The position numbers and the translations under genes are program-made. DNA of 64,000 bases, taken from positions 25,623,365 to 25,687,364 of the forward strand of contig NC_092678.1 in assembly GCF_964355755.1 (NCBI RefSeq), written 5' to 3'. The stretch is from Antedon mediterranea. Lineage: Eukaryota; Animalia; Echinodermata. The notes below the pieces were generated by a model, which saw only the letters and a program-made list of their open reading frames with translations, did no database searches and was not told the DNA's origin. Positions 5,959-64,000 of this stretch are shown here, piece after piece (the stretch's first letter is position 1; each line of letters begins with the position of its first letter).

Positions 5959-8900
5959 GGATGCATAAACTTGCGTTGTTCTTTAAAGTTGTTTACGGCT
6001 TTATCTTTGGATTTGTCAAATGCATACAACGCTCTGAAAAGAAAAAATGAACGAAAAACCAATAATCAACGAGAATAGGACAGGAGACATTCTACAAAGA
6101 AGGAAATAATCTGCGTCAACTAACCTGTATAGAGGGCGCACAAATTTCATTCTTCCTTGTCGGCTAACAAAATCCAAAGCTGGCTCGATTGCAGGCTCGT
6201 GCTTGGAATTAATTTGCAATTTCAACCACCTGTTAAAATATGCAGATTTATTAGTTAGCATTGTTTTTTTGTACTGTTCATTTTACCCCACACTCTTTAG
6301 ATAGAATGATCAACATACAGGAGTCAACCTTACCTGAATTTAATTTCTGAATTCTTGGATGCGCTGAATTGATAATTCTCGTCCATGGCTAGCAAATGAG
6401 ATTCTGGAAGTGTAGCCCGCTGGTGATTAAAATAAATAGTTAATAATTAACCTCAATTTTTAAACATTCTAATTTAGCCAAGTTACTTTTGTCACCAATT
6501 TCTAAGTGAAAGTGAACTAACCTTATGGAGTAGTTGTTCGAGGAACTCTTTCTTCTGCATTGCTGAAAAGTCTGCAATATCGTCACTATTAAAACTCTTT
6601 AAATCGTCTTCAGATGCCTAGAAAAAGACAGTTATTTTGTACGTGATTTTTTGGTGTTATAAAAAAGAATTCTTATTGAATTTGCCTCGGGTCACTCCTG
6701 TTAACTTACTTTACTCCAACGGTCACTCAGATTGGTGCAGGCATCTGCCAAAATAGTGTTGTACCTAACGGAACAACAAACAATGTATTTATTTCTAGAC
6801 TCTTTGTCTTTTATATCTTCCTCTGAATATAATTTGTAGTTTTTTTAAAGAATTCTGATCGTAATTGAAAAACAAATAATGCACACATTTCTTAAGTTTC
6901 TATGTTATATTTATATCTCCCTCTGAATATACTTAGCAGTTTAAAAATTATAATTACTGTATTTCTGATCTTAATTTTTTTTTGCTCTAAAGACTTACTG
7001 GGGTTTAACTGGTGGCATCCCTGGTTTAGTGAACCACGCATCCCAATCAATGCTATCCAAAATATCGGCCGAGACCTGAAATTAAAACACATTGCAATTA
7101 ACGCAATTGTGTAGTTGTTAGCAAAACCATCTATGTTATTAATAAATTTAAAATATAATTTTTACCTTGTTTTTGAAATAGCTGAGAAAGCAGTCTTTCC
7201 ATTCATCTGTTGTAATGCTTTTGAATGCAAACTTTTTAACATAATGTTTCAAGTATCCGTCCATTTCCTCTGCAAAATGAATTTCGAAACATTACAATAT
7301 TTACTTATCGTCAAATGGAAGAAGTTGGGATTGGGTCCTGTGCAACTCACGGCAACCATAGTAGGATTGGGTCCTGTGCAACCATAGTATGGCGTTACCA
7401 TTCTGTATTTCATTTCTTAATTGGACATAAAAATACCATGCACAACAGGGGCCAAGATTATAATTTCTAATAAACAATTCCTTGAAGAAGTCAATTTACC
7501 TGAACCTCCGACGAGCGTTTCAAGGTAAAACAGAAGCGTGTGACCTTTTTCGTAGGGAATACTTGAGAAAGCGTCATCTGGGTCGCTGCCCTCTAGAGGT
7601 GGAATGAGTTGTGTGAATTTGTGGGTCTCACCAAATGTTTTGACCTATAGAGTAGTAATACAATTGTAAATGTGAGCATTTTTTGGAGCGATAACAATGT
7701 CTTTATTTTGTTAGTTTGATAAATAGATACTAACTTACACTGTTAATAAGGTCTTTCCAGCCACCTTAAAAATAGTAAAAAAAAAAAAACGAATATCAAT
7801 CTGAAATTACTGAACAAATGACCATACTGTTTTTTTACACAAATATGTATTTTGATTAATATGTGTAATGTACCTATGGCTTGGAAATGTCTTGTCTTCT
7901 CATCAGTCAACTTAGCAATTATTTTCCGTTCTAAGTAAACTGTGTGTCCCTCATTCAACCAAAAGTGTTCCCAATTGAGGTTTGTTACAAAGTTCCCGGT
8001 CCAGCTATGGGCGATCTCGTGAGCGATCACGTTAGCAAGTGACTTGTCACCAGCTAGGAGTGTCGGAGTGACGAATGTAAGACATGGATTTTCCATTCCC
8101 CCGAATGGGAATGACGGAGGGAGCACCAGAAGGTCATAGTGACCCCAAATGTATTCACCAGCTATGGACTCTGCTGCTGCTATCATCTTTTCTGTCTGAA
8201 ATTTAAACAAACATTTTTCTAGCTTATTCTAATTTACTTTTTATTATATTCGGTATTGGAATCATCAGTTCAAATCATAAACTACTACTATCAATTTGAA
8301 TTCGGAAAAAAAACTTACATCTTCAAATTCCATAGCAGCATCTTCCACAATATCTGCTTCCGACCAGACGGATGAACGTGGACCAATTTGCCTGTAGTTA
8401 AAAAAAAAGACAGTTGCGTTATTTCCTGAAACAATGGCGTGCTGGTATACAATTGTACTATGTAAGTAATTTTAATTGCAGAGGATAAATCGAAATTGTC
8501 ATCATCCCATGATGGAGGGGCTGACTAACCTGCTATCCAGGGCACCAACCACAACAGCAAATAAGTAACTTGGTATTGGGACGTTTTGCTCAAATTTGTA
8601 CACTCTCTGTGTAGCATCAGTAGGTGAAAGTTCATTTCCCATTCTAGTAGCACTCATCAATGCTGTTAGCTCTTGTGGAACTGTCACCTATTACATAAAC
8701 ATTTAGTATGTGATGTGCCCATATATGGACATGATGATGTCATATCACTACCATATTTGGGCATATCACTACCATATAAATAATAATAATAATAAACAGT
8801 ATTTATATAGCGCCTAATGGATCATTTATTACTACCAAATTGATTTAGATGATCATACATACTTACATTTGCCTGATATGTGACTTTGACTGCAGGGGTG

Positions 8901-29534: not shown

Positions 29535-31965
29535 ATGGGTGATAGGGAATGTTTTTGTGAGAATGGGGGTACATGTACGTCGTCTGGGTTGTGCTTTTGT
29601 GCCTCAGGGTTCAAAGGGAGCACATGCCAATACGCTGGTAAGTCGTCGCTGTTATTTTATTCCAAGCCACACAACCTCCAAATTATATTCGGGAACAAAT
29701 CGTGATCGATCATGTTTGTGTATTTTCCAATACAAATTTCCAACGAATTGTCATGGCCTCGGTTACACACAGTGGAAAGGAAATGACAGTCCAAACCTGC
29801 AGGAAATAATACATAAACTATTTGTTCACATTTCGAATGCGATTATCTTTCCTTATTTTATGGTCGGAATTTAATATTTACTTTCAACATTAATTAGTCT
29901 TTTGTTCTCACACACAAAAAAAGACATACGTTTCACGCGTGATTTGCACGCGGTACGCATCAAAACGCAGCAATCTAAACGAACGCGTAATTTTTAGATA
30001 CGACGATCGCCACAAACCGACACATTACGCCTCATATGCAAAACCAAAATAATTACGCAATTAAAATATTTTTTATGAGTCCAAAGTATTTAACGGTGGT
30101 CTATACGCGATTTGTCATCAACTTATTTTATTGGTAACGTTATAGCGCCCCCTAATGGTTGGTTGTGTTTTAAAGAGTATTTATAGTCCCTCTATTGTTT
30201 GGTCACAACTTCAACTTGAAAAAAGTTTGAAGACGCGAAATTGCTCAGGTTAGGCATGGACCTAATTAATATGTTTGGGATAAAAAAAAGGATGATAAAA
30301 AAAAGGGGAACAAAGGGGGAAAAAGAGGTTTTTTTTGTTAAAAAAAAAAAAAAAAAAATAATGTTTAGATTGCTGAAACATGTGTTGTAATGTAGTATAT
30401 AATAGAGATTACTAGAGAAACTTAACTTTTGTTTTTCTCTCATCAGATGATAATATCTCGCACTTTCTTTTTCAGATGAAGTTTCTGAAAACACAGCATC
30501 TAAAACACTGGAGATAATTATCGTAATTGGTGCTATAATTTTCTTCATGATCAATGGTCTGTGTTGGCTATTTATTTGGTATAAACGTAAACAACAAATT
30601 GAAAATGAGGGCATTTCACTTGATGTGCTTAACCGATGGGTCAGTGTTCGTAAGTACACATTAATTAAGTTCATTCTAGATAAAAACTTTGCTTTTAAAT
30701 AGATCCATTTAACTCCTAACTTAGTTTACCCTCCTTCTGCACACTTTCCGATGGGTCAGTGTTCGTAAGTACACATTAATTAAGTTCATTCTAGATAAAA
30801 ACTTTGCTTTTAAATAGATCCATTTAACTCCTAACTTAGTTTACCCTCCTTCTGCACACTTTCTTTCATTGTAAATGTTATGTGTATGCAGAGAAACATT
30901 AAAAACAAAGATCGAAACAAACTAGATACAAAAAATTTCCCTGAAGAAAAAAAAGAATACTTTTATTAAATTTTTATTTACGTAACAGACTTTCTTTATT
31001 GTATATAATTTAAAAATTCAATTTCTCCGACAGATGCAAACCGACAACAGTCATTGGACCAGAATTCACGTATAATGGCCGATCTCGACATTCCACCAAA
31101 TTACGAAGATTGGCAGAATGGTTCACCAGGCACGCCTGTTGTCTTACCCGGTTACTTAGTATCACATGTGCAACACAAAGACAAGCGTTCCTACTCTTTA
31201 CCAAACACCACAATATTTGTACCGGGATACTACCAACCACCGACAGGCACCAGTGACCAAACTCCAGGATTCTCAACGCCTTCAACCCCAGTGATTTTAC
31301 CTGGTTGGTGCAGCACACCGAACAGCTCAACGTCATCACCCTCGACTCCGGTTATTGTACCTGGAGTTATGGCGCCTGTCAAGTTGTCAACAGACTCGCG
31401 ACAAAGCTCCTCGCAAAGTACTCCAGATTCGTCAGGTGTTCCTAACGGTGTTCTGTCACCTTTAGCTCGATTCTGGAAGAAGACGTCTCCAAATAACCGA
31501 TCAATGGATGCAGCATCGCCAAATTCACCAGTTTTTCCGGTAACAATATCTCCGCTTGTAACATCCGGGGTTAAAGTTGATACGCAGCAACAAAACTACA
31601 TCACAACTCCGACAAAGTCTTCACGATTGTTTAAAAAAAAATCTAGCGTTTTAAAATTATTTATACCGCCCCATGATGCAAGTTGTTCAGTGGTGGACGA
31701 ATGTGAAACTGCTCCGGCATCCTTTGGCAAATCAAAAGGAAAAAGTCGTGGAAAGAAAATGTTAAAAAAGACTAAACATGTAGATGAAAGTGGAATTGGA
31801 ATTACATTATTGGTAGATCCTAAAAAGGAGGAAACAAAAAAGGAGGAAACAAAAAAGAAAGAAATTAAAAATGAAGACACAACAAACAAACAAGAAACAA
31901 ATGAAGACACAAATTGTGAAGAAAAAAAATGTGAGGGAACAAATTGTGAGGACACAGGACTTTAA
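29535..31965 (+). CDS. Uncharacterised 402-aa EGF-module single-pass membrane protein with PPxY and an SP/TP-rich tail (paralog B). Exons 29535-29637, 30476-30649, 31034-31965; probable 5'UTR exon ending at 29133
   Basis: MGDRECFCENGGTCTSSGLCFCASGFKGSTCQYA (six-Cys EGF pattern), TM IIIVIGAIIFFMINGLCWLFIWY-KRK, then RWVSV-HANRQQSLDQ...IPPNY. Both introns are phase 1 with GTAAG donors. Confidence 0.82.
30633..30862. repeat. Exact 115-bp tandem duplication spanning the donor of the TM exon
   Basis: ccgatgggtcagtgttc|gtaagtacacatt...ctgcacacttt at 30633-30747 and 30748-30862. Confidence 0.95.
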
Positions 31966-32715: not shown

Positions 32716-35700
32716 TTAATGTAACCCTCCAAAGCAAGCATACTTAATGTTAAGATATTCATCTATACCATATTTTGATCCCTCCCTACCCAAGCCAGAC
32801 TCCTTAATTCCCCCGAAGGCAATGTTCATAGCGGATAGCACCGATTCGTTGATGCCGACCATTCCAACCTCTAGGTCCTCAGCCACACGCCAAATCTGTT
32901 GGATGTCTTGTGAGTAGAAATAACCTGCAAGACCCATCCTGGTAGAGTTGGCAATTAATAGTGCTTCTTTTTCTTCCTTAAATCTTTGAAGAAATAAAAG
33001 AACAAAAGTTAATGTTTCATCTCTAAAGCTCTGTCTACACTTTCAAACTAGTGTGATATGCCCAAATATGTTAGTGATATGACATCATCATGTCCATATA
33101 TGGGCACATCATATTTTTCAAATAAAGTTTGATAGTGTAGATTCAATGCAATAATCCATTAACCGATTTGTTGTTTTTAATTTATAATGTTTTGTTTATT
33201 ATAATATCCATTATATTTTATACCTTGCAGCCCAGCCATTCTTTAAATGAACTGTAAGACTGTCTCAACAAACAATTGCATCTTGAGGTATGTGTCCTTT
33301 TTTAATTCATAATTCCATACAAGAAATGTCAATACATTTGTTTACAGTGTCTTACTTTATTACTGGGGCTAGAGGTCCAAATGTCTCTTCTCTGCAAACC
33401 GCCATTTCTTGATTAATGTCACGTATTACTGTTGGACTGTAGAAAGCCGGCCCTTTAGCGAGCCGTTCTCCACCAATCAGAACCTTCCCTCCTTTTTCTA
33501 CCGCATCTTTCACATGTTTATCCACCTAAAAACAAATATTGTTTTAGTATTATAACTTTAAACTTAAATTAGGATAATAATATATAAGATTTGTAAAGAG
33601 CACATATCCACTAAAATGCTCAAGGCGCTGTGGACTAGATGTTACACTTTCAATAACATGCTTCTTCCCTAAGGGTCTCTTCATGTCCTGCAGCTACTTA
33701 CGGCGCTTTATCTTCTGTCCACGACACAGTGGCTGAGTGTAAACTAGTACACCGGGGTAACCCCCCTACTTGTCTTTGAAAGATGTACTAGGTTCTTTAA
33801 GTGTGTGTACACTGGACCTATGTTTTATAGTCCTTATCTGAGAAGACTCGTTCTACCACCAGAACAATGGAGCGAGAGAGCCGTGAACCCTTGCCGATAT
33901 TTGACTATGGATTACGGTTCCATTGTCTTAATTGCTCGGCCATACACCTCACTAGTGATGTTGCCATTGTCATAACTGTAGCTCCATCAATGGTACCTAA
34001 CCTTATCTACTGCCTTTTCATTGATCAAAGGTCCATGTGTAGTACCATCTTCCAAACCATCGCCTACAACAAATTTCTCGACAGCTTTTGTCAGCTTCTC
34101 ACAGAACTCGTCATAGACTTGGTCTTGAACTAATAAACGGTTCGCGCTTATGCACGTCTGTTAAATTAAAAATGAATATTTGGTTTAATTATAATATTGA
34201 TATTTTTTTTAATTGTTTATCTTTATTTAAATTCAAAATTAAGAATTGTTTGTAATTGATTCTTGTGGACCTTGTCGATGTTCTTTTGTCTTGTCTTGTT
34301 TATGTATGTTGATTGCGAAAAAAAAAATTACGGCAAACCCAACAATTATGATCAGTAGTAAGAACACTATTTATTGTGCTTTTAATTTTGTTATCTGTTC
34401 AAATATACAACTATGATTTGGTTAGTAAGCTGAATCTAGGCGTTTAAATTAAAAGGTAAATCTAGGTGTTCAAATACCTGGCCTGATCCTCTAAACTTTG
34501 AGGAAACTGCACCCGCTACGGCAGCATTCACATCGGCTGAATTAAACACGATGAACGCCGCATTCCCACCTAGCTCCATTGAAACACGCTTCATTGTGTC
34601 CACAGACTGCTTCATCAAGATCTGAATAAAAATATACTAAATATGGTAGTGATATGCCCAAATATGGGCACATCACACTTTTTTGTCACATAAAGTTTGA
34701 TAGTGTAGACAGAGCTTTAGAAATTGACATAAACAAGCATAATCTACAACACAACTTGTGAAGATTCAGCATATTGTGGTAACTTACCTTCCCTGTCTCA
34801 GTTGACCCTGTAAATGATATTTTAGAAACTTTAGGATTTCCACAAAGAACTTTGCCAACCTCTGCTGCATGCTTATGAGAGCAAGTCACTACATTGAGTA
34901 CACCAGCAGGAATACCAGCTTGTTCCGCATACTGTAGCAAAATCACAATGAAATTAATAAGATGTATGCATTGATATTCCGCATACTGTATCAAAAGCAC
35001 AATGAAGTTAATAAGATGTATGCATTGATATTCCACATACTGTATCAAAAGCACAAGGAAATTAATAAGATGTATGCATTGATATTGATAATTTATTGGT
35101 TACTCTCCTTTGAAATGGAAGAACACGCTTGTAACAAAAGGTTCGAAGTCATACAGTAGTTTGTAATGGCCAAATGATACTGATAGTGTGTTTTAAATGT
35201 TCTGATATAAGTAGGCATCATTATGTGGTATATGTTTTAATCTACCATATCCAATGGTTGTTAAGTAAAGGAATGATTTGAATTTTTTTTTTCATATCAA
35301 TTTCAGCTTGTAAATATGTATATGTTTGTATGATGTCGTATGTTTAAGCGGATATTAGCATTGATGGCATTTGCAGCAATAAAGAAATTGAATTAAATTG
35401 AAATTACATGACAGGTAGCAAGAGCCGACAGTGGCGTGTCTTCAGCTGGTTTGACAACTACCGTGCATCCAGCGGCCAATGCTGCTCCTACTTTCCTTAG
35501 AATCATTGCATTTGGGAAATTCCACTACAATCAATAATAACACATAGATTTAGAGTTATAGAGTTATGATACATGATTTTGTCTATAGGGCTGCCCATTA
35601 AAAATCACTATATTCTGTAAATTTGATGAAAATAGGGACCCGGCAAATAGGGACCCGGCAAATAGGGGACCAATAAAATCCAGGGACCAATAAAATCCAG

Positions 35701-36877
35701 GGACCAATAAAATCCAGGGACCAATAAAAATCTAGGGACTAATAAAATCCGGGTACCAAAAGTCTGTAATTGGGGTTAAGACATATTGAGTGATTACTTA
35801 ATATATAGAATTGTTAAGTTTCAACATACTGGTGTAATTATACCACAAACGCCAACTGGTTGTTTGAGATGTAGTTGCCTCTTGGATTTGAACCCAGAGG
35901 GCAGCACATCACCATACACTCTCTTGGCCTCTTCTGCAAACCACTCCACAAATGATGTTCCATACATTATTTCTCCTCTAGCCTCTGTAATTGTTTTCCC
36001 CTATAATTAAAATAGGAAATATAAATAAGTATTTACTATTCATACTGTAGCTCATAAGAAGCTCTGTCTAAACTCTCAAACTTTATTTGACAAACAAATG
36101 TGATGTGCCCATATATGGAAATGATGTCGTCATATTACTATCATATTTTAGCACATCACTTCCCTATTTAGGCATATCACACTTTTTTTGTCAAACTAGT
36201 TTGATAGTGTAGTTTAGCAGTTAAAAAAAGAAATGGTAAAAGAAAATATTGATTATAAATGGATACTTACATTTTCAGCTGTCAATATTTGAGCCAGTTC
36301 TTCTTGGTTGTTTGTCATTATTGTGTACCATTTCTTTAATAGTTTACTCCTATCCTGAAATCAAATATATTTATATTCATAATATGATGCAATTTATCTC
36401 TGTACAGTCTCAGGGCCATAGCTCGCCTCGTCCGAAATTTTCAGTTTTCAAAACCCACCCCATTCCCCAAACACAGCTTGTCGTATTTTATATTAATAAT
36501 TATATTTAATTTAAAGCATCTCTGCCTTTTTGTCTGTTTTTAAACTCTCGCTACTGCCTTCAATATTTTTATATTTAAAAACTTAAACAACATACAAAGG
36601 CTGTGTAGTCTTTCCATTGTTTGAATGCTTTAGCTGCATGGTTAACTGCTGCTTCTGTTTCGTTCGCTGTCATGTCAGCTACTTCTGAAATCAGTTTCCC
36701 ATTTGCCGGATTCTTAACTGGAAATGTGCTGCCATCTTCTGCGGGGACCCATTTACCGTTGATGTAGGCGTTGCTGAGGGCAAGTGTCATGGCCGATCGT
36801 GATGACTTGCATATTGACGTCATAGACCTAATTGTCAATATGTTGTTGAAAAGTTTGTGTGACATTTTTCCGATCAT
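32716..36877 (-). CDS. ALDH5A1: Succinate-semialdehyde dehydrogenase, mitochondrial. Exons 36877-36596, 36354-36271, 36000-35830, 35524-35408, 34931-34788, 34621-34478, 34157-34002, 33525-33356, 32983-32716
   Basis: Motifs [45 protein letters not shown] (catalytic Cys), EETFGP and [17 protein letters not shown]. The basic, Ser-rich N-terminus is consistent with a transit peptide. Phases are consistent. Confidence 0.95.
33027..33141. mobile_element. MITE family A copy
   Basis: aagctctgtctacactttcaaact...aagtttgatagtgtaga. Confidence 0.75.
33580..33950 (-). mobile_element. tRNA-derived SINE, near full length, with a Deu/Nin-like central domain and LINE-like tail
   Basis: Minus strand: tggccgagcaattaagac (box A), gggttcacggc (box B), cttctcagataaggactataaaacataggtcc...ttaaagaacc core, and tail cagcgccttgagca...tggatatgtgctctttacaaat...tattattat. 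The family label is from memory of Deu-domain consensus sequences. Confidence 0.7.
34923..35084. repeat. 54-bp triplication spanning an ALDH5A1 splice acceptor
   Basis: ttccgcatactgtagcaaaatcacaatgaaattaataagatgtatgcattgata in three copies with a few substitutions. Confidence 0.93.
36060..36218. mobile_element. MITE family A copy
   Basis: agctctgtctaaactctcaaactt...aaactagtttgatagtgtag. A further partial copy lies at 34637-34717. Confidence 0.75.
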
Positions 36878-37479
36878 TTTTACATCTGAAAATAATAACT
36901 ATATTGTTTGTGAACTTGGTTACATATTTCAAAAAACGTCTTAAAAAAAACAAATAATAAATTTATAGATCATCGATTTCTTTCTTGTAATTGTATGGTC
37001 TTTAGCCTTCCTTCTTGCACACATCGAGTGTTAGAAGTTATGTGCTAGGCCTAGAATAACATGATTCACTCTCATCATCTAGGATGAGAGTAACTACGTA
37101 CTACTCTCTAGTGGAGTTTAAGTTTACCAAATGGGTGGAGTAGGAAATGGATTCTAATAAAGTCCCTAGCCTTTACACTAATATTGGATCAAATCTAGAT
37201 CTTGAAATTGATCATAATACTAAAACTTCATCTATCTCAGTGAGTAAATGTTGAAATTACCAAAAGCCCTGTTAGTGTTATGTTGCAAACTTTCACCACA
37301 CACCATCTACAAACCTCTGCACATTTAGGCCATAAGCAGTAGCTCAAAAGATGCCTAGAACATGGATTTCGTTCCCACCTCTTGGATCTACATTTTGAAA
37401 GTTGATATTGTGAAATGAATATGTTACACATACTATATCAAAAGTTCTCCATGAAATACTTGTACACTTTTGAGCAATG

Positions 37480-49740: not shown

Positions 49741-51807
49741 GTATTGAATTCAAGTCGAAGGACCATTGTCAAACGTAGATTAGATTAGTAATGTTATATC
49801 AAGTTTATTTAATAACCTTTAAATTGTATTTATAGTGTGTGTTTGATTTTTTAAAAGTTGAAAAATTCATTGATTGATTATCTCTTGACGGCCTACTAGG
49901 ATACTTGTAGGTTGTTAAAACCCTGTTCCAGCAGACCACTCAACTGCCTTTATATTTGTTTTCTTTTCTATCACAATTGTTATACAGTATTAAAAGATCT
50001 TTTTGTCAATTTGTTTGTCAGTATTATTAATTAGTTCTCAGTCGCCAATGTTCGGAATCTAAATATTACGATGAACGGCAGACGACAGGAAGGCTACGTA
50101 TAAAATACTGTATCACCACGTGATGCCATATTTATTTATTTAACAACATCTTATACAGGATTACACAATCAGGTAAAAGAAAACCTGTTTTGAATTGTGG
50201 TCATGTCTTAAATACAAAAAAAAATCCGGAATCGAAAATCACGATCTAGCTTTGAATGAAGCAATAATTGTTGGGAAAGTTTAATTTCAGTTGGTAGTTT
50301 ATTGCATATTTTGGCGCCTACAAGTTTGAACGACGAGTTCAACTTACTAATGATTTAGTAGGGTGGCGTTCTACTACGTGTAAAGTGAGTATGAATATCG
50401 CCAACCATAACACAACCTTCTACAGACTTTTGTGATATTGTCGTACAATTTTATTTTATGAAATATTCATGAAATAAAATTAAGTAATATGCGTCCGTGT
50501 TTTTCGGATTAGAGGTGATCGTTGATCCGTGTCAATGAACGCCAAATATGAGGGCACATTCTATCCAATCATTGGTAAATCGATTAATGTGGTTTAATCA
50601 TGTTTTCCACGACGGATTTCCGTCCGACATCATTAATTTGTCGCATTCATTTTGCGTCATATTCCGTGTAAATGTTCACAACGATTTTATTTTTCTCAAT
50701 AAGGTTCAGTAATTTAAATTTCAATGAATGTCGCATGTTTTTTGTATTATTAGTAAATCCATGGAGAATAGATTTTTACTGTGTGCATGCTATCGGCACG
50801 GGGATAGTAATATAGTTCTATGCTATCGGCACGGGGATAGTAATATAGCTCCATGCTATCGGCACGGGGCTATAAGATTAGCTCCGTATCGGGAATGAAA
50901 AAGAAAACCAAAGATGATTGTATCTTTGGTAAAACATAAAGTGCGACCTCAATGTTGTGTTCGTGAAGTTCTTGTTGTTGTCGCGGTTTGTATGTGTGGT
51001 CAGCAACAGTTGATACACTCGTGAGGAGGATACCTCTTCGGTCCTGGCGTACGCCGAGCTTCATAAGGTAATATTCCACTTTTTACTATTAAATTATACA
51101 ATTAAAAAACTATGTGCTTATTTAAGATTAAATGTTTTTGTTTACGACGCGCCTGTTTGTAGTTGTCATGTGTATTTAAGCATGTTTCTGAGGTTCTGTT
51201 CTTTCTTGTGTTGTGTGCGAACTAGCTAGGCAATTCTTGTTACAAAATTCCAAGAAGTGGAAGGCAGTGATGACGTAATATCATACTTTATTAATTCGTT
51301 CTGAATTAAATATTGTTATAACAGGAAGGCGAGCGCTTCCCAAATATTAAACATTAATATTATACATCTACGTACCGTTTGTGCGGTGGACAAAACGGCA
51401 TAATCAATGTGTACAGAAATCCTATATATACTTTATTTAGAGATTAGGTCTACAGGTAAAGGTGTGTGGACAGCATAAAATTAGAAAGTTTGAGATTACA
51501 CAATAAGGGGGTGTAGCCATCATAAAATGCGCGATTAGCAAAGTAAAATCGGGAGAGAGAATCATACATTATTTTTTATTAAAAATAAGGATGGATGGAA
51601 TTAAGATTACACTATTTGAATCAAGATTAAAGAAATTGTATTGGTCCACTAAGATGGAAATTAATTGGCATATTAATTAAGAAAATAAAACTACAAGAAA
51701 ATACATAAAATTGCACAAACGGTATAGGCCAATGTTGAAATACTGTCTCATTTATTTTACCTCGCGGCAGGTAAACCTAGAATTATATATTCTAGGTGAT
51801 CTTTGAG

Positions 51808-54800
51808 ATGTCTATTGGCACCAACATGGAGCTTCATCGACTCATTGCTGAAAGATCTGTGTCAGAACACAGCGCTGAAATGTCATTAAGTTCACTCTCG
51901 TTAAATATTACATCGGATGAGTCTATGAAATCCAGTGATTCACCTGTTGATGTTGCCGTTGAGTTTCCATCATTTCCAAAAAATATTGGAAACAAGTTGC
52001 CTTTAAACATACCAATTGAGAAGAGAAAGAAAATGAATGTTTTAGACATTGTCTTCGAGTTTCCAGATTCCATTACCTGGTCGTCACCAACAAAAACTGT
52101 TGTCGTGGAAAAATCTGAAAATGGCAAACTTGGTATTGCTTTCTATCAAAAACAGGTAAGTTTTACTTTATAGTTATGTTTTCAAGGATAACCCTAAGCA
52201 AATTCATTCACTATCCCTCTTAAAGATCGAAATCCCGTTCACAAGACAACATATACAAAGCCTTATTACAATTCTTTGAGAGTGACATATGACATGGAGT
52301 GGAATTGTGACTTGGGGCGCGTTTATACAACACGCTATTACACGCATATTCTACACGCCTACGAGAAGTGTGTTGTATAACAACAAAGAGATTCCGTGTA
52401 ATGAGATTTTAATTGCAAAAAAGGCTACTTGGCTGAATCCTAAAATTTGGTGGATTCCCGGTTGCCGTTACCGTGTTGGAAGTGTCCTCAGGGTATATTT
52501 TGACCTCTCGTTAAAACAGGTCGTAATATCAATCATGTCATGCAACGTCTAACAAGATTGGGCCCATTTATTGCTGCTTCGCTGCCAGCAATCATCCTCC
52601 TACCACGTCTTACGCCTAGCCTGGTAGGGCCAACTCGTAGTGCTAGTAGGCCTCTATAGACTATCGTTTCCCACTCCAAACAGAATAAAAAATAACATCG
52701 CAAAAATGGCATCTTCTTCCATAGTGTATAGATGAAACAATGAAACCCTTAAAATAACTTTTATTAATTTAAATGAACCGAGAACAAAATAAACAACAAT
52801 GCAAACGTGAACGAATACAATAATGAAAATGGTAAAAACCGCGCGAATACATCGGACAGCGAGGAGGCGACGATGATTTGTTGACAACAACCCAGCCAAC
52901 AATTCAATTCAAGCGATCAACGATTTGACCATCATGATTTGACCTTTTATCCTAGCATGCACTGTGTGTTGATGAAACTTCCGGTACAACACGGTATCGT
53001 GATTTCTAGTATAACAGCAAACGTTAAGGTGGGTTGACCTCGGTCCGAACAACACGCTAAAAATTTAAGCCGTGTTCAAATTTAGGGTGTTGTATAAACA
53101 CGACCTTGGTGACGGTCCTGGCACATGTCAGGATTTTTAATAATTTGTAATAAGTCTGTTTCTTATGATTTAAACAATACTTTTAAAACATTAATGTAGT
53201 AAACTTCAAATCAATGATAATGTACGTTTTTAGGGAAGTTGCCGTTATTATTTCACAATACATAGCATAAAGAGAGATTCGCCAGTTTATGGCAAGTTGA
53301 AGTGTGGAGACTGGATACTCTCTGTTAATGGTAACCCAATGGATTCTGAGAAAAATGTAAGTCTGCACTTTAATTTGTTTTAAGTCCTCAAAAAATTCTA
53401 AATACTTAATAGTTTAATATCAACAAACAATAATTATATAGGTTAGTTTGTGCATGTAGGTATTTTATACCTCCATGGTTTGTGCATGTCTGTGGCGTTG
53501 TTTGTGCATGTAGGTATTTTATACCTCCATGGTTTGTGCATGTCTGTGGCGTTGCTTGTGCATGGAGGTATTTTATACCTCCATGGTTTGTGCATGTCTG
53601 TGGCGTTGCTTGTGCATGTAGGTATTTTATACCTCCATGGTTTGTGCATGTCTGTGGCGTTGCTTGTGCATGTAGGTATTTTATACCTCCATGGTTTGTG
53701 CATGTCTGTGGCGTTGTTTGTGCATGTAGGTATTTTATACCTCCATGGTTTGTGCATGTCTGTGGCGTTGCTTGTGCATGTAGGTATTTTATACCTCCAT
53801 GGTTTGTGCATGTCTGTGGCGTTGCTTGTGCATGTAGGTATTTTAAACCTCCATGGTTTGTGCATGTCTGTGGCGTTGCTTGTGCATGGAGGTATTTTAT
53901 ACCTCCATGGTTTGTGCATGTCTGTGGCGTTGCTTGTGCATGTAGGTATTTTAAACCTCCATGGTTTGTGCATGTCTGTGGCGTTGCTTGTGCATGGAGG
54001 TATTTTATACCTCCATGGTTTGTGCATGTCTGTGGCGTTGCTTGTGCATGTAGGTATTTTTTACCTCCATGGTTTGTGCATGTCTGTGGCGTTGCTGAAT
54101 ATGCCTTTAGTTAGCTTGGACAAAAGACGTTCACAAATTCACTATTAAGTGAAAGTGTGTACCTGTAGATTGGTGAATACATGTTCACTGATGCATGACA
54201 AACTGTGTTTTTGATTGTGAATAGGCCTTTAAAAAAATATTGAATAAAAGGATGATTGAATTACAATACATATTTAGAGGTACTATAAGGTATTTAGTGT
54301 GTCACACATTAGTGGCATAAAGAAAAAATTTAACATACAAAAAGTAATATTTTAATAGAGATTACATTAAAATACATTACTTATGTCAGATTAGTATTTA
54401 ATCTGAAACATTGTAAAATTAATTATATAGTACAGAATTTCAAGTCTATATCTGAAATTAATAAAAGTCACAATTTCTCTCCCATCAAATTTCACGTTTC
54501 CCAGTTTGAAGGAAGTGTATAACCAGGAATACATTCTGGTTTTTTTAACTTTCAATTTTAGAGAGGTTTCTGAGAATTGCAAACTTCTTGAAAAATGAAA
54601 CCATTCTATATTTCGATTGAAATGAATTTCAATATGAATTTCTTAGACTATATTTAACAAAGATGGTCTATTTTATTATTAGACTTATAATATTCTTATG
54701 CTATATTGTTAAAATATTTATAAAAAAAACATTTTTTTTTTATAGGTAAGCAAACTAAGCAGTATTGTGAAAAATACCAGAAATGTAAAATTTATTGTGC

Positions 54801-57800
54801 AAAGTCCTAAAAAATATGATGCATCAAAACTATACCTAGGCGGTACAAATCCTCTTAATCCTCAAAGGCAGAAAAAAGTGGTAAATAAAGAGTCCTGGCT
54901 GGACACCAACATGCCAAATCTTCCTTTCTTGAAACTGTTTGTATTTGGAAAAGAAAGTTCATCCATTACACTATCTCTGATTGGTGCAACAAGCATGTCG
55001 GAGGTAAAACCAACTAATCCTGTAGCAGCTTTGGCATATGCAGATCTGAATCAAGATCATGATTGGTTACGAGTCAAGCATAGTGTTAACTATTTTGCGG
55101 AAGTGTTGGATTCAAGACAAAACTTTGCATTCAGAGGACAATCATTTGGTGGTACATTCCACCAAAATGTTCGTCTAGAAGTCGTTGCGCTTAAGGAAGG
55201 GCACTTAACGGAATCATGTTCCCAAATACTGCTATGTAAACACGCTATTTATGCGATTCAGTTCAGTGTTGAACAGTTTCTTGCGGATTCTGAATCTGTC
55301 CTGGAAACAATCCAAAAACATTTATGTAAAATTAAATGCTATGTATCAACAAAGGTCAGAGTTTATCTGATCGGAACGCAGAATTCTAATATTTCATGCA
55401 ACGTTCACGATATTGGCAGAACGTTACACAACCGATTTTGTGTGTCTTATGGCAATATGTTGCAGTACGATGCGTTGACAAATGCGCCATGTTTCATCGT
55501 GAAGCTCACAAGATATAATCAACGAAAACTGATAAGTGAAAGTTTTGATTCATTCTCTGATAACAATATGTTGTTGGAAATGTATGACGATCATTTTGGC
55601 GAAGACTTTCATCTTTATGACATGCAAGTTGTTAAGAATCATATTTCAAAGGTGGCTCTCAGACAAGGCTTCGTTGATGCTTCGTATCCTTACAGATACC
55701 TACAACTTCATAAGCGTGTTCATGATTTGCGAGATCAAGGATTAAAGTTTCAACTGCAGAACAACTTTATTTTAAATTGCATGGATGTGAATAGTTGCTT
55801 GACGTATCTACATGATTCAGGAGATATCCTTAATACAGGTATTGTTAAATTTAATTTTTTGATGGTCGTAAAAACAATTTTTTTTTTTTTTTTTTTAAGT
55901 TTGTTGGTTAAATTTACAGTATTTTTTTCTTTAAAAAGTATTTTATTTAGTTTCCGATGGCCGTACCTATAAAAATACTGTAAATTTAAACAACAAACTT
56001 TTTTTATTATTTTATTGAATTTCTGATGGCCATACATATAAAAATAGTGTAAATTTAATCAAAGTTTTTAAAGTATTTTATTTAGTTTCCGATGGCCGTA
56101 CATATAAAAATACTGTACATTTTAACCAAACAAAGTTTTTTAAAGTGGAGATTATTTATATCGTGTTACCTGACACAATAGTCATTGTTATGGTGTCTCA
56201 TTGAAGCATGAAAACGTGCCATGCAATGAGTCACTTTATACAGTCTAGTAGTTTTGTAATATTTGTTGAATCTGCTCTCATTTCTATCACAATTTTTAAT
56301 CAATTTCTTGCAGGTAATCTTGTGTTTTCGTCTTCTACTCCAAATGGGTTGATCATGCTTGATCGCCAGCACCTTCTGAGAAACGCTTGCACCATTTCTA
56401 ACGCTCCCCTAGAGTCACTGTGTCATCCGAATTATTACGACGGCTGGCAGAACCTTAAAACGTCCGCTTGTGCTGAAAAGAAATTTCTATCGCAGCTGGT
56501 TGACGGCGTACACAAAGTAGAATTATTAGAATCAATGAATGTAATACATTGCTTGAAAAGAAACGATGTTTGTGGTGCTAATAACAATCATTCTGATGAC
56601 GTTTATTTGGTTCCAATTTATCTCAAACAACATTTCGAGTTGGATCCCTTTCTTAAAAGACAATTCCATCATCAGCTTTGCGTCGACTTCAATGGAATCA
56701 TTCCAGATGGGTTGTTCTTAAGAAGTGCTATTTTAATGATTCAGAAGTTACAACAATCTGATTGGCAATTTCTAAGTCACAATGCACTTCAAGTTAGTAT
56801 GCGAGGGTGTTGTGAGTTTATAATTGAGTCAGACTCTAGGAAAGGAGTTATCAACATCCATGCCACGTAAGTAATAATAATTATAATATTTTTATTCATT
56901 GTTATTTTAATATTGTAAATTCAATCATGGACCTATTTATAAGGTCCATAATTCAACAATGCTTGTTGAAGGTCATATTGTGAGTAATTGTTCTCTGTTT
57001 ACACTATCAAACTGTGCCCAAATATAGTTGTGATATGCCCAAATATGGTAGTGATATGCCCAAATATGGTTGTGATGTGCCCAAATATGGTAGTGATATG
57101 CCCAAATATGGTTTTGATATGCCCAAATATGGTTGTGGTATGCCCAAATATGGTTGTGGTATGCCCAAATATGGTAGTGGTATGCCCAAATATGGTTGTG
57201 ATATGCCCAAATATGGTTGTGGTATGCCCAAATATGGTAGTGACATGGACACATCACATTGGTTTTTTGTTACGACGAACAATAAAACAATAATTTTTGT
57301 TTTATTAGATGGTTTGGAACGTACAGCCCTCTGAATCTCCTAAATCTTGTGACGGAAGTGTTCACTGCCATCTCACCACAACGGACATTGATCGGGCCTC
57401 CGTGCCCGTTGTCATGTGACGAGTGTCACAAAAGGGATGGTGACAACAGGCAAACACATGTCATTGACCTCAGTAAGTACTCAATGTACAATGGTCTGTA
57501 CTGTGGCTCAGAACATATTGACAACGATGAACATGTTGCACCATGGATTCAAAAGAAACCAGCAAACGTGGTAAGTATCATTTATTCAAAAATTTATGTC
57601 TCTGCCACTTATCTTTCCACTGAAAATATTACTATAATCTAATTTTGTTTCAAAGGGTCACAAAACTGACTCACTTTTGATTTGTTTTTAATACTTGTGT
57701 TAAGAATCCAATCTCTTCAATTTTATATTTGTTTGCTTGAATAGATTTGCCAGATTCCTGATAGCACAATGAAATGCCTTAGCTTAAAGACGCGTCTGAT

Positions 57801-58650
57801 GGACCTACCCACAAAGGTTACTAACATCATAGAAGATAACATGAACTATGATGATCCATTGAATCGGAATTGGAAAGGCCTCGCAAGTAAGTACATTATT
57901 TAATTGTTTTAGATATTTGCAATTGTGCTTCTTTTGAATTTTAGTAGGATTATTAAAATCTAATAACAAATATCAGTTTAAAAAAATTTAGATCTGGTTT
58001 GTTTTTGTTGTAAGAAGCCTTTAAGTTGAAATGTAATTACATTGTTTTTATTTTTTACAATTATATTCCATAAACTCTGTCTACACTATCAAATTTTATG
58101 TGACAAAAAATGTGATGTGTCCATATATGGACATGATGATATCACTACCTCATTTGGGCACATCACTACCATATTTGGGCACATCATTACCATACTTGGG
58201 CACATTATACATTTCTAGTTGAATCACAAGACTATTGATTATTATAATGAACTCTGTAACCATAGAATTCCACTCTTGGCATTCTCCCAACAATATGCAA
58301 TGTTATGACCAAATAAAGCCAAAGACAAAAAAAATGGATTTGTATATAAATATAAAAGAAAATAAGGTCATGACAAAAACAGGGAAAATTGTTTAAATAT
58401 ATTTTAAAGTAAATCCAATTAAATCTCTGATCAGAATAATATTGTTGTTTTTACAGGTATACTTGGTTACACTTGCCGAAAAGCAAAAATGCTGGAAAAT
58501 TATCCCAACAAAACGGGTAAATTGTTACAAGACTTCGCCAAACAAGGCGGCGTAACCCTTGGAAAAATGTTTAACCTACTAAAACATGAGGAGCTTCGTA
58601 GGTTTGACATTATTGAGGATATTGAATCATGTTTTGAAATTGTAGATTAA
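51808..58650 (+). CDS. PDZ + degenerate ROC + COR + death-domain protein (ROCO-related), ~904 aa. Exons 51808-52155, 53234-53356, 54746-55838, 56314-56866, 57309-57570, 57745-57886, 58457-58650
   Basis: PDZ: KTVVVEKSENGKLGIAF...IHSIKRDSPVYGKLKCGDWILSVNG. ROC-like strands: LKLFVFG, AIYAIQF, VYLIGT. COR motifs: YPYRYL, CLTYLHDSGDIL, IMLDRQHL, YLVPIYL, FNGIIPDGLFLR. Death domain: RNWKGLASILGY...TGKLLQDF...VTLGKMFNLL...RFDII. Phases are consistent. Confidence 0.8.
53447..54095. repeat. 60-bp intronic minisatellite, ~11 copies
   Basis: Unit ttgtgcatgtaggtattttatacctccatggtttgtgcatgtctgtggcgttgc-type, seen as an exact 20-aa period in the ORF track. Confidence 0.9.
56992..57270. mobile_element. MITE family A copy with its internal 21-bp unit expanded to ~11 copies
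   Basis: ctctgtttacactatcaaact followed by (gcccaaatatggtwgtgrtat)n. Confidence 0.85.
58074..58212. mobile_element. MITE family A copy with 3 internal 21-bp units
   Basis: ctctgtctacactatcaaa...(catcactaccatatttgggca) x3. Confidence 0.75.
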
Positions 58651-59417
58651 TTGTAAATATTAATCGTGTGTGCGCTTGAAATTTGCAATTACGCATGTTG
58701 TGTATTCATGTAAGTGGACAATTACAAACACAATTTTTATGTTTCTCTGTTTTTGTATGTTTTGAAAAACCTTAAACACATTAAGTCGTAACTGGTACAG
58801 TAAGAGTCTGTTTGGATGTAATAATTTACAAAAACCCAACTCATGAGGTGAAATGTCAATTACACCTTAAACAGCAAGTTTATCACCCACAATTACACCT
58901 TAAACAGCAAGTTTATCGCCCACAAGATAAGGAGAAATTTGACCGTACTAGTGTAGAGATGCATGGAATATGACCTTGCTGGGTACATTTTTACAGTAAT
59001 TTACATCATTCGAACATCACTGGTTTAGCTCTCAAGGTATTCCGTAACTGATTTTATGTCTGAACACAGCCTAACTGGTACAGTAACTGTGTTGATTATG
59101 TTTAAACTTACATAATCAACCTTGAAACGTTGACACCTTTGGATTTATTTCACTATATAGCAGTATTTCTATTTGTACAATAATTCTTATGTACAAGAAT
59201 AGTATTGTAAACCACAATCATTCTTATGTACGAGGAGAATAGTATTGTAAACCACTTGAAAACCAGGGCCGTGACCAAATAAATAAAGCTGATTGTGAAA
59301 CACAAAACGTAATATTTTACTAAACCAGGGCATTGAAGAAATGAATAAAGCAGAATACTGTACACAAAACATAGTATTCCACTTCCTCATATTATGGTAA
59401 ATTACTACTGATAAATT

Positions 59418-59975
59418 AAGATCCAGTGTTCATTTAATATGCATAAAACATAGGCCTATTCCCAAAGAGATTATGGGATACTTGTCTATGCTTCCACCCC
59501 AATGAATCCTTGTGATGACCTTTGAAAAAATATGTAAAAGTTAGCATTTACTCAGTTTGCCTAAGTACACCAACTTAGTTTGTATTTGAGTAATGTTTTT
59601 TATTTGGTGTTATTTGTATAAATCCAGTGTTCATTTACATTACTACATAAAACATAGGCTTTACTTCATATAGAACCAAAGGGATGATGGGATACTTGTC
59701 TATGCTTTCACCCCAAAGAATCCTTGTGATGACATTACAAAAATATGTACATTTGAAAGTTAGCATTTACTCAGTTTGACTAAGTACACCGACTTAGTTT
59801 GTAATTGAGAATGTTTATAATTTGGTATTATTTGTATAAAATCAGTGTTCATTACATAAAACATAGGCTTTACTTTATAAAGAACCAAAGGGATGATGGG
59901 ATACAGATCTTCTACCCCAAAGAATGTGTACATAAAGTTAACATTTACTCAGTTTGACTAAGTACACAAACTTAG
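59418..59975. repeat. Diverged ~190-bp tandem triplication downstream of the death-domain gene
   Basis: cagtgttcatt...cataaaacataggc...atgggatac...ccccaa.gaat...aagttagcatttactcagtttg.ctaagtacac..acttagt occurs three times. Confidence 0.85.
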
Positions 59976-60654
59976 TAATAATAATAATATGAACATCACA
60001 GGCACAGAATAAATTCTAAACCACCAGTGATATACTAAAATTTAATTAAGTTGAAACGATAAAGATGAGGAAATCTGTGAGAATGAGAAAAAGTCGCCCA
60101 ATATATATTGACGTTCTATTTCGCATCTGAAGTAAAAATCAGTATTTAAAATGTTGTGGTAGTCGGAAAACATCGTATTGGTAAAATGTTGTGGTAGTCG
60201 GAAAACATCGTATTGGTAAAATGTTGTGGTAGTCGGAAAACATCATATTGGTAAAATGTTGTTTCTAAAAATAGAGCATGTAACTTTGTAATCGGGAGAC
60301 ACTACTGTTGCGGCGCAATTGATTTTATCAATTTCATGAATTTTTTTTTTACCAGAGCATTAGTATTATACTATGAGTGTGTTTTTTTTATATATCTGGT
60401 GCCATTTACATCCATAGAACCAATTCAGTATACAATTCTTTTGTTGTATACAGTGTTATTTGTGGAATAAACTGAAAGTATTGCGCAAGGTGTGCCAGTG
60501 CAGTGTTAGTAGTACTTCCTGAGGAAATTCCAGTTTAAACATTATTACCTTCCTATCCTATAGAAGTTGTGTTGGTTCATTGTTTGCCCAAAACAAAATG
60601 AATGCATGTTTATTCAATGAATGAAATTTTGATGATAAAATATTTACTACTGTA

Positions 60655-61497: not shown

Positions 61498-63347
61498 CTA
61501 TTTAGTTTCAATAGGAGCACCTTCTTTCAACTTTGCTCCTAAAAATCCACTAAGGTAAGTCATCATACTCAGTTCGTCAATCTTTGAATCTGTAAGCTCT
61601 TCAGGTGTTAAAACCTATAAAATGAAATAGGAAATTATTAAAGACAATGCAGTTGTCCTTGTGTGTAAACATTGGACATCCTAAATGCTTAGTTATAATC
61701 TACCTGTGTAACACCTAACCAATCATCTGCAAGCTGCATAATCTTTCGTAAATGTTCAACTACCTCGCTGTTCTCATTGTCATCTTTGAGTTTAGGACAC
61801 AAACCTAAAGAAAAATATTAAAAAACAACACTCATTGTCTTTCTTTGTCATCTGCCAATTGGCAGGTCCATGATAGTCTTCTTTCTCCATACTTCTCTAT
61901 TTAGTGATTCTTCTTCTAGTTCCGAATATTTTTAGTTTTTAATCTATCAAGCATAGCTATCCTTATTATACTTAACACTTATTATATAAAAATATTTTAC
62001 TTTTTCTTAAAAGATGCTATTTTTAAATAAAACCTTATTTACAGTAAATTACTATACTAGTTTTTAAATTTGTTTGGGTCTTTAAAAAAGTAAAAATGTA
62101 TAGTTTGGGTGTAGGCCTTACCTGGTGCGTGGGCGTCGACCAACGCATGAACAGCACAGCCATCATTCCAATCTGTCGTCAAGTTGTTGATCGTTGGTTT
62201 TTCTATCTTGTCTTTTACCCAGTTGAGTAATTGCTGATTTCTGGTGCTCTCTTGTTCAGTTATATCTTCCAGTTTTAAGAATGCATACTTAAGTATAAGT
62301 GACCATATCACTCCCCCAATCTGGCTCACATTTCCATTTACAATTTCCCCTGCATCTGTTTTGAATGATAATTATAGAATTTAATATGTAAAGGAAATGT
62401 GATTAGTTTAGTGTGTATATTGGTGCTTTGATATAGCCCTACTCCCCACCCAAATCTTTCCCCCTCTCCAAATGCCATACCCTACAGTATATTCAAACCT
62501 CTTCCTTCTCACCCCCTTTCACACTACAATACCCAGGGTCATTATATTCTAGATGGCAGGCATATGTAGAGGAATGTGATTAGTTTAGTGTGTATATTGG
62601 TGCTTTGAAAAATTGTTCCACCTTGTGCCATGTAAATAGTACTACTACTCCCCCACCTGACTCTTCCCCCACCTGACTCTGCCCCCACCTGACTCTGCCC
62701 CCACCTGACTCTTCCCCCACCTGACTCTTCCCCCTCCTCGCCCTCCAAATGCCCTACCTTATATTTAAACCTCGACTCTTTCCCCATCCCCTTTCATACC
62801 AACACTGTCAAGCAACATTCAGGGCCATTACATTCGAGGTGTATATTATGTGTATATGAAATGTGTACTTTATTCTACCAGTGGCGGATCCAGTATTTTG
62901 AAATGGCAAATTTTAAGTGCCGAACTGAAATTAGTGTCCTATCCTTTGCATTACAATAGCAACATTTAGGTGAGCCTGCTGAGTGCGCCTGCTGAGTGAG
63001 CCTGCTGAGTGCCCCCTTGAATTCGCCTATGTTCGTATTGTCTAAAAATGACCCGAATGATACTTACCAAAGCCAATAAGCTTAAGTCCTTCACTTCTTA
63101 CTAACTCCAGAGCTACCTGTACATTCTCAATCTTTTTTGACTTGAATAACGCCATTTTATTGTAGCGTGGTATTTTCCTGTTTGTTACCTTTTCCACTAA
63201 TGTAATTAGGATGACACCATTGCTGAAATCTTTACCTATACTTTTGACACGTTTACCACTGCCTTCTAATTGTTTGTTACACCAGCGAATAACAACATTT
63301 TGTTGCAATTGTGTCCATTCTGTATCGGGTCCTGGATCTTCTGACAT
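61498..63347 (-). CDS. Filamin-like protein consisting only of the tandem calponin-homology actin-binding domain, 243 aa. Exons 63347-63068, 62355-62122, 61804-61704, 61614-61498
   Basis: CH1: WTQLQQNVVIRWCNKQL, KIENVQVALELV, IGGVIWSLILKY. CH2: LLNWVKDKI, NLTTDWNDGCAVHALVDAHAPGLCP, ADDWLGV, IDELSMMTYLSGF. Ends AKLKEGAPIETK*. Confidence 0.88.
62648..62735. repeat. 16-bp C-rich tandem repeat (cccccacctgactctk), ~5 copies
   Basis: Directly visible in the sequence; gives G5 runs on the minus (sense) strand of the filamin-like intron 1. Confidence 0.85.
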
Positions 63348-64000
63348 TGTCTTATTCCTCAATGTAGTGCAGTTGATATCAATCTATGGTTTTTGTTCCG
63401 TCAAAATGTCAGTGAGGCTTTGCCAGCTTATGAGTTCTGTGTTGATACAATTCTGTCACTATAAAAAAGTCTTGTAAATAATCGATGTATATGTGCGTGA
63501 ATATGTCAACAATAGTATTGTAATATGTATTTGGGGCGAATCTACATGTAGGTTTAATCCTTAATAAACACAATTACAATTGAACAGTTTAAAAGATCAT
63601 ATTGAGTCAGACTTTGTATTGTTATGTAAAACATGCTTGTCATAAATATCAATTTATAACAACAGTATGAATAATTGGTACAAAAAGCAGGAGGGCTCAG
63701 CCATGTGGAACACGCAAACATACCAGTTTCACCCGTAATGACCATATATGGGCATTAGTGTGGTTAATGTAAAAGAATATAATATACATTTGAATGTAAA
63801 CTAAAAATGAGTGGGTGAGTGCTTACAGGGCAAGGCTATACTGCTGTGTATTATCAAATATCAAATGAGTGGGTGAGTGCTTACAGGGCAAGGCTAATAT
63901 ACTGCTGTGTATTATCAAATATTTAATAATTCTACATTTGTACTGATTTATTAAAGTATACACATTATAATGTAAGAAGCTAAAGTTTATAAAATGTTTA

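Follow-up and report, generated by a model that had tools for sequence, protein, structure and literature searches.

A 64,000 bp stretch of the genome of the crinoid Antedon mediterranea (assembly GCF_964355755.1, contig NC_092678.1, positions 25,623,365 to 25,687,364 of the forward strand), called the window here and numbered from its first base, carries a gene at 51808-58650 that raises a simple question: what does a Roc domain do in a protein that has lost the motifs with which Roc GTPases handle nucleotide? A preliminary description, made from the sequence alone, had proposed a frame-consistent gene of seven exons and about 904 codons, encoding a PDZ, a ROC-shaped region, COR motifs and a C-terminal death domain. 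We find that the gene is a Roco by fold and a pseudo-GTPase by motif, and that it is neither DAPK1 nor an active Roco. It belongs to a conserved pseudo-GTPase Roco family present in three echinoderm classes and a brachiopod and is not a product of decay, because a second crinoid, starfish, sea urchins and Lingula share the same dead Roc.

Loss of the GTP-binding motifs

The pseudo-Roc (54911-55669, amino acids (aa) 213-465) lies within the third exon and, like all features of this gene, on the forward strand. Its P-loop (G1; 54947-54970, aa 225-232) is collapsed: the first Gly is kept and is invariant in the family, three residues are deleted, and there is no GK[ST]. The GxxxxGK[ST] pattern is present in 73 of 74 control Rocs and in none of the 16 rows of the family alignment, all of which share the three-residue deletion. 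These controls are the bacterial loci with enough open frame on both sides among 121 fetched by the Roc G3 pattern, the other 47 having been dropped. A structural model predicts a strand (218-224), a three-residue turn and a helix (228-236) at G1, with a predicted local distance difference test score (pLDDT) of 91 for the block. At the G3 or switch II position (55184-55201, aa 304-309) the DxxG is replaced in Antedon, Asp by Ala and Gly by Glu; the aligned position lacks both Asp and Gly in 16 of 16 rows and DxxGQ occurs in none. The loss of P-loop and DxxG noted at the outset in a single sequence therefore extends to every orthologue aligned.

At the G4 position (55373-55387, aa 367-371) there is no Asp. 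The window reads GTQNS, as the preliminary description had it, and four sequencing runs read GTHNS (55381 G>T in 4/4); the Q is allelic and GTH is the commoner allele, and neither reading has the Asp.

Conservation is low at all three motifs (means over nine rows of 0.49 at G1, 0.49 at G3 and 0.38 at G4), compared with 0.78 for a QxxLxKIxxY helix (55313-55345, aa 347-357), the best conserved window of the family, and 0.69 for a hairpin at aa 394-407. Conservation also peaks at the WxGLA helix of the death domain, the GD strand of the PDZ, the Cys cluster and the LHxxG motif of COR-A. By established P-loop chemistry the Antedon Roc is predicted neither to bind nor to hydrolyse GTP, because the P-loop is shortened and without its Lys and Ser/Thr and the Asp of DxxG is missing. 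Fold and alignment together give the signature of a pseudo-GTPase, with the G-domain fold kept and the nucleotide motifs lost in all orthologues.

A Roc-COR tandem between a PDZ and a death domain

Pfam recognises little of this architecture in the Antedon protein: PDZ (expectation value (E) 8.5e-4) and Death (E 0.036) both fall below the curated cut-off, and Roc and COR have no match. Scans of single exons gave no meaningful match in six, and exon 3 compared with Protein Data Bank (PDB) sequences gave nothing under E 0.29. No kinase or other enzyme domain and no ankyrin repeat was matched in any of the 11 proteins scanned, the Antedon protein and its relatives.

The fold is clearer. A model predicted from the 16-row alignment reached a pLDDT of 72 and a predicted template modelling score (pTM) of 0.60, compared with a pLDDT of only 35 from single-sequence folding, and its top Foldseek matches are LRRK1 (E 4.8e-15), a Chlorobium Roco and LRRK2. 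Residues 212-786 of the model align with 1329-1859 of LRRK2 (8fo9; Z 23.1, root mean square deviation (rmsd) 5.0, 446 aligned), and the Methanosarcina Roco 4wnr aligns similarly (Z 22.6, rmsd 3.5, 297 aligned); Rab-type GTPases lie well below, at Z 15.6 and lower. Profile-profile alignment with hhalign of family aa 205-792 against the 74 control Rocs gave a probability of 97.4 and E 1.6e-11 (Roc alone 0.002, COR alone 3.3e-9), with reversed and five shuffled controls at E 0.26-0.66. Structure and profiles alike place a Roc fold directly before a COR, the tandem that defines Roco proteins. Feature look-alikes in the Atlas carry Roc, COR or Death families in 10/10 among the matches listed, the best at 0.85 for the whole protein and 0.92 for aa 205-470.

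The two ends are recognisable too, and Pfam, weak on both in the Antedon protein, is clear on them in relatives. The PDZ fold matches those of Tiam1, NHERF1 and Dvl1 (Foldseek template modelling scores by target 0.77-0.80), the family profile finds the MPDZ PDZ (E 6.4e-6) and many further PDZ structures in the PDB, and the carboxylate-binding loop (R/K-xxx-G-h-G-h) is present in 11 of 12 full-length rows. The death domain (model 808-904) aligns with that of MyD88 (Z 12.9, rmsd 2.4, 95 aligned); the family profile finds p75NTR (E 3e-9) and also IRAK3, MyD88 and NRADD, Pfam Death is above cut-off in six relatives, and a WxGhA motif is kept in 12/12 full-length rows. All four domains that had been proposed are therefore recovered by fold or profile in one spliced transcript, Pfam being weak for PDZ and Death and silent on Roc and COR, and the model bears out the proposed fold with LRRK1, LRRK2 and prokaryotic Roc-COR matches at its core and PDZ and MyD88-like death folds at its ends.

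The Cys/His cluster had been listed as an element of its own. Its residues are present (C738, C745, H756 and C771, kept in 12/12 full-length rows), and the alignment with COR-B takes in the cluster at its end; it is therefore part of COR and not a separate element. The Cys-Cys-His-Cys arrangement is a predicted zinc site; the literature searched gave no support for a zinc site in COR-B. A complex prediction for two COR copies (aa 466-790), run without an alignment, scored 0.01, which speaks neither for nor against a COR dimer.

A conserved family in echinoderms and a brachiopod

An exhaustive search with exon 3 yielded 11 cluster representatives at E <= 0.001, from Antedon, Anneissia, Acanthaster, Asterias, Lytechinus, Diadema, Lingula and four more, one of which clusters with Strongylocentrotus. 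The named records are all 'uncharacterized', and the UniRef title of the Strongylocentrotus one is 'PDZ domain-containing protein'. Pfam matches to PDZ and Death occur in the same order in five of the nine new representatives, and the same four-domain order is seen in starfish, urchin and Lingula records; weak COR-A matches (E 0.002-0.09) occur in five of the nine and Roc matches in none. In each of the four domains the crinoid rows keep 21-35% identity with the non-crinoid ones, which speaks, as do the tree below and the lack of disabling variants, for maintenance by selection. The Lingula match reached only E 3.6e-6, and more distant members have therefore probably been missed. Word-based searches, even with the family profile, returned just two crinoid proteins, blanks that are uninformative since relatives exist, and of 71 loci picked by motif from metagenome contigs none was a family member by profile.

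A tree of the 12 full-length rows, which leaves out four partial rows and is rooted at its midpoint without an outgroup, has groups that follow animal classes, with crinoids, starfish, urchins and Lingula apart from one another; its long branches were flagged. One cluster per species was seen, and there are no tandem copies in the window. Two near-identical 1427-aa records of Lingula anatina (P0011 and P0034), each with two PDZ stretches, are either recent duplicates or haplotype copies.

Exon structure and splicing

The gene has AG acceptors and GT donors at all six introns, and its exons join into a 904-aa frame with a single terminal stop and an in-frame stop immediately upstream of the exon 1 ATG, in agreement with the structure first proposed; the protein is identical to a database record (P0001, XP_071960416.1, 'uncharacterized protein', Antedon mediterranea). 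The motifs quoted in the preliminary description are all located in it: LKLFVFGK at aa 219, GTQNS at 367, CPLSCDEC at 738, HVIDL at 756 and LYCG at 769.

The coding part of exon 1 (51808-52155, aa 1-116) encodes a Ser-rich disordered tail (aa 1-76), a helix, a conserved PD-x-I-x-W extension and the first PDZ strands including the GKLGI carboxylate-binding loop, and exon 2 (53234-53356, aa 117-157) encodes the middle of the PDZ. Exon 3 (54746-55838, aa 158-521) contains the end of the PDZ (to about 54817), a linker, the pseudo-Roc and the start of COR-A with an LxYLHxxG motif. The remainder of COR-A and most of COR-B lie in exon 4 (56314-56866, aa 522-706), and the end of COR-B in exon 5 (57309-57570, aa 706-793), with the predicted zinc ligands at 57403-57504. 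Exon 6 (57745-57886, aa 794-840) encodes a linker and then, from about 57787, the opening half of the death domain, and exon 7 (58457-58650, aa 841-904 and the stop) the second half. A probable 3' untranslated region (58651-60021) is contiguous with exon 7 on a spliced contig; DNA contigs also stop at 60021, and there is a hexamer at 60008. The end of a putative non-coding 5' exon lies at 51042-51067; a donor at 51068 and an acceptor at 51770 have a geometry that fits 24 unplaced letters heading a spliced contig.

Five sequencing runs are listed and none is recorded as RNA; that run X1 is RNA is a guess from its behaviour, and the transcript evidence consists of contigs of this one run and not of a full-length molecule. 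X1 contigs contain the joints 53356>54746 and 55838>56314, both with GT..AG and both absent from run X4, which is DNA. The first of these is the junction that the preliminary description had singled out for confirmation. One X1 contig of 1630 nt carries exons 1, 2 and 3, with a placed gap of exactly 125 letters (2+123, the 123 being exon 2); exon 2 is spliced to exon 3, and the loose contig end matches the end of exon 1. On a second, of 2552 nt, exons 4, 5 and 7 are placed, and its gap of exactly 143 letters (1+142) fits the 142 of exon 6; the two contigs overlap at the exon 3/4 joint. PDZ and Roc exon therefore belong to one transcript. Differences from the window among four runs include no stops and no frameshifts.

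Unspliced X1 contigs also cross the intron 3 donor (55812-56099) at a depth of 10.5-13.6, compared with 42.2 for the spliced one, and intron 2 is mostly uncovered. If intron 3 were retained, the frame would stop at 55972 after a hydrophobic tail encoded by a T-run whose length is uncertain; possibly this represents a form lacking the death domain, or just pre-mRNA or DNA.

A proposed nucleotide-independent adaptor and its alternatives

What, then, is a dead Roc kept for? A plausible scenario, to which we give close to an even chance, is that the protein is a nucleotide-independent adaptor in which PDZ, dead Roc-COR and death domain act as a unit. In this scenario the PDZ would attach to the tail of a protein of the membrane or cortex and the death domain would bring in partners with death domains of their own, with Roc-COR as a fixed spacer and a platform for binding; without a switch, control would come from localisation or from clustering through the PDZ. 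An adaptor is the simplest reading because there is no enzyme domain and no switch. We infer that selection keeps the Roc-COR fold as a surface, because conservation peaks at helix 347-357, the COR-A LHxxG and the family-specific hairpin and not at the old pocket. By analogy, binding of receptor tails by the PDZ, formation of dimers and an immune or apoptotic role are all predicted, as the preliminary description had supposed, and the pathway may be one of innate immunity (of the MyD88/IRAK type) or of receptor-linked cell death (of the p75NTR/UNC5 type). The apparently low copy number is more in keeping with a conserved adaptor than with a sensor in an arms race. A wider proposal would trace this undescribed pseudo-GTPase Roco family back to the bilaterian ancestor or earlier, make it a low-copy core adaptor coupling PDZ-binding membrane proteins to death-domain assemblies, and have its Roc-COR signal without a nucleotide cycle; it is tentative and rather doubtful as a whole.

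Several observations weigh against the adaptor interpretation or the evidence behind it. The control Rocs were picked by their G3 motif and are a fair control for G1 only, not for G3, and the G4 pattern [NT][HK]xD, found at the aligned position in no family row, matched just 34 of the 74 controls. Helix 347-357 lies inside the exon used as the search query, and its rank is partly ascertainment. Helix aB of the PDZ is poorly conserved and aligns poorly, and it shows no conserved class I His. The pTM of the model does not fix the placement of the PDZ and death domain on the Roc-COR core. A PDZ is lacking in the 763-aa model of Anneissia, in one of the Diadema antillarum models (P0033) and in the gene calls P0005 and P0007/P0014, two further lineages; either these models are incomplete or there are forms without a PDZ. 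Copy number does not favour an immune role, a single cluster per species being unlike the expanded immune sensors of invertebrates.

The strongest alternative, which we nonetheless consider unlikely, is that the protein is a decoy or regulator, either because its dead Roc-COR pairs with an active Roco (DAPK, LRRK or Roc-COR-Death) and alters the GTP cycle of that partner, or because its death domain caps a MyD88-type assembly. IRAK3, an inhibitory pseudo-kinase, is among the top death-domain matches of the family profile, active Roc-COR-Death clusters are present in marine invertebrates in the Atlas, and the most conserved window is a surface helix of the pseudo-Roc. As described in parts of two reviews, COR and Roc mediate the dimerisation of Roco proteins, in which hydrolysis needs a residue from the partner Roc (PMC6337361), and the DAPK1 Roc makes heterodimers (PMC6320773). 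A simple decoy would need no PDZ, yet one is present in 11/12 full-length rows and is doubled in Lingula.

Variation between runs bears on a second alternative, in which the former nucleotide face would now serve a different ligand (an effector, a host protein or a molecule of microbial origin) whose binding triggers death-domain assembly. X1 differs from the window in the Roc by nine replacement codons to one silent, and in aa 1-212 and 466-793 by four to five (Fisher p 0.057); three of the amino acid changes, at 369, 372 and 378 (55379-55407), lie beside G4 and recur in 4/4 runs, with no silent change nearby. Inactive STAND NTPases have been proposed as nucleic-acid sensors in a portion of PMC8195603. 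The ratio of 9:1 is nevertheless not above neutrality in the comparison of X1 with the window (binomial p 0.31) and gives no sign of positive selection; several changes fall in low-confidence loops, so that relaxed constraint explains them, and the replacement excess is a hint of just that. The net charge of the Roc is inconsistent across rows (-8 to +8), and no expansion of the gene is seen. We regard a sensor as improbable.

It is very improbable that the Roc still binds or hydrolyses nucleotide through a non-canonical pocket, leaving the protein a switch. In its favour are an intact G-domain fold, an invariant first Gly in the P-loop, GTH at G4 in the commoner allele, and the variability of G4 to G5 in true Rocs, according to a section of PMC6337361. 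Against this stand the P-loop deletion in all rows, with neither Lys nor Ser/Thr and no G3 Asp, and the free variation of the pocket positions between species, G3 being the most conserved region of true Rocos in that section.

That the gene model is mis-joined, or that the gene is a Roco pseudogene in decay, is scarcely credible. In favour of this reading, all Pfam matches of the Antedon protein are under cut-off, the model of the nearest relative (Anneissia) is without a PDZ and expression is taken from contigs of one run of guessed RNA status; it is already contradicted by the spliced joints on those contigs, by the four-domain order shared with starfish, urchin and Lingula records and by an open frame without disabling variants.

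Other features of the window

Minisatellites occupy parts of introns at 53448-54096, 57015-57247, 58141-58205 and 55936-56143 (in that order 54-bp x12, 21-bp x11, inverted 21-bp x3 and 66-bp x3), and in DNA runs the 21-bp family and an element in intron 1 (about 52170-53170) reach very high copy numbers. Intron open reading frames at 53406-54148 and 56984-57339 were rejected as exons, being read-through of the minisatellite repeats. Read-through gene calls from starfish, urchin and further animals (P0005-P0007, P0009, P0013 and P0020-type) end or begin at the positions of introns 1, 3 and 4; comparison with the Antedon gene suggests that intron positions may be common to it and its relatives.

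Elsewhere in the window, genes for a peptidase M1 (7746-8228), which we take to be LTA4 hydrolase-like, an aldehyde dehydrogenase (32719-36898) and a tandem calponin-homology protein (62060-63383) are all on the reverse strand, and no link between any of them and the PDZ-Roc-COR-Death gene was seen. A Ser/Pro/Thr-rich open frame of 318 aa (31009-31965, forward strand) is without a Pfam match.

Comparison with known systems

The PDZ-Roc-COR-Death family is apparently undescribed. Searches for the architecture, for six gene ids and for the pseudo-Roc found no description among the papers listed, a body that excludes subscription journals and InterPro. Three findings had been named beforehand as telling against the proposal, and none was made: Roc, COR and death folds are all found, the PDZ is not on a separate transcript, and the architecture was not found described. 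The proposal was nevertheless overstated in part, as kinase-less Roc-COR-Death proteins are already in print, in a portion of PMC8195603. Marine invertebrates commonly have Roc-COR-Death proteins that lack a kinase and leucine-rich repeats (LRR) and vary at the N-terminus, so that what is new here is the PDZ, together with a dead Roc that is conserved.

Excerpts of three papers (PMC6337361, PMC6320773, PMC12408332) divide Roco proteins into three groups, place a death domain in the DAPK1 group only, and leave PDZ unmentioned. The C-terminal half of DAPK1, compared here by description and without an aligned DAPK1 sequence, is like the Antedon protein in having Roc-COR followed by a C-terminal death domain and no LRR (PMC6337361, PMC12408332, both in excerpt), and the Atlas look-alikes include a cluster with the automatic name DAPK1. 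The Antedon protein differs in lacking the kinase, calmodulin-regulatory and ankyrin parts and in having a PDZ instead; DAPK1 binds GTP through its P-loop, as an excerpt of PMC6320773 states, and the Antedon family has no P-loop.

The same C-terminal three-domain core is seen in the kinase-less AP-GTPase+COR+Death proteins of sponges, corals and molluscs reported in a portion of PMC8195603, which carry ankyrin, DED, TRADD-N, CARD or HEPN modules; among the at least 11 AP-GTPase rows listed in its supplement 4 none has a PDZ, and AP-GTPases are said there to have remained only switches. Atlas clusters of kinase-less Roc-COR-Death proteins (Roc 82-92%, Death 56-63%) have a core like that of the Antedon family; their members mostly match Pfam Roc, unlike the 11 proteins scanned here, of which none does.

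MyD88 is the nearest death domain by fold, and p75NTR, IRAK3, MyD88 and NRADD are found by profile. The Antedon protein lacks the TIR, ZU5 and transmembrane segment of the MyD88/TIRAP adaptors and p75NTR/UNC5 receptors, and a death-domain identity of about 22% names no partner. Among pseudo-GTPases, p190RhoGAP pG1/pG2, CENP-M and dynein LIC have eroded motifs and a platform role, and none is a Roc-COR tandem. Tsr1 likewise keeps the G-domain fold with eroded nucleotide motifs and acts as a binding platform, and it too has no Roc-COR tandem (PMC4895721, in part).

The best structural matches over the Roc-COR tandem (aa 212-788) are LRRK1, LRRK2 and the Chlorobium and Methanosarcina Roco proteins, with which the Antedon protein is only 9-14% identical and whose LRR, kinase, WD40 and GTP motifs it lacks. 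Echinoderms and brachiopods separated over 500 million years ago, and a family that has kept the tandem fold without a GTP motif since then is a natural control for a nucleotide-free Roc-COR. Orthologues in laboratory sea urchins (Strongylocentrotus and Lytechinus) open its function to knockdown. Such a control could show whether the tandem dimerises, in which conformation it is locked and which of its surfaces matter, and this bears on the debated mechanism of LRRK2 and DAPK1.

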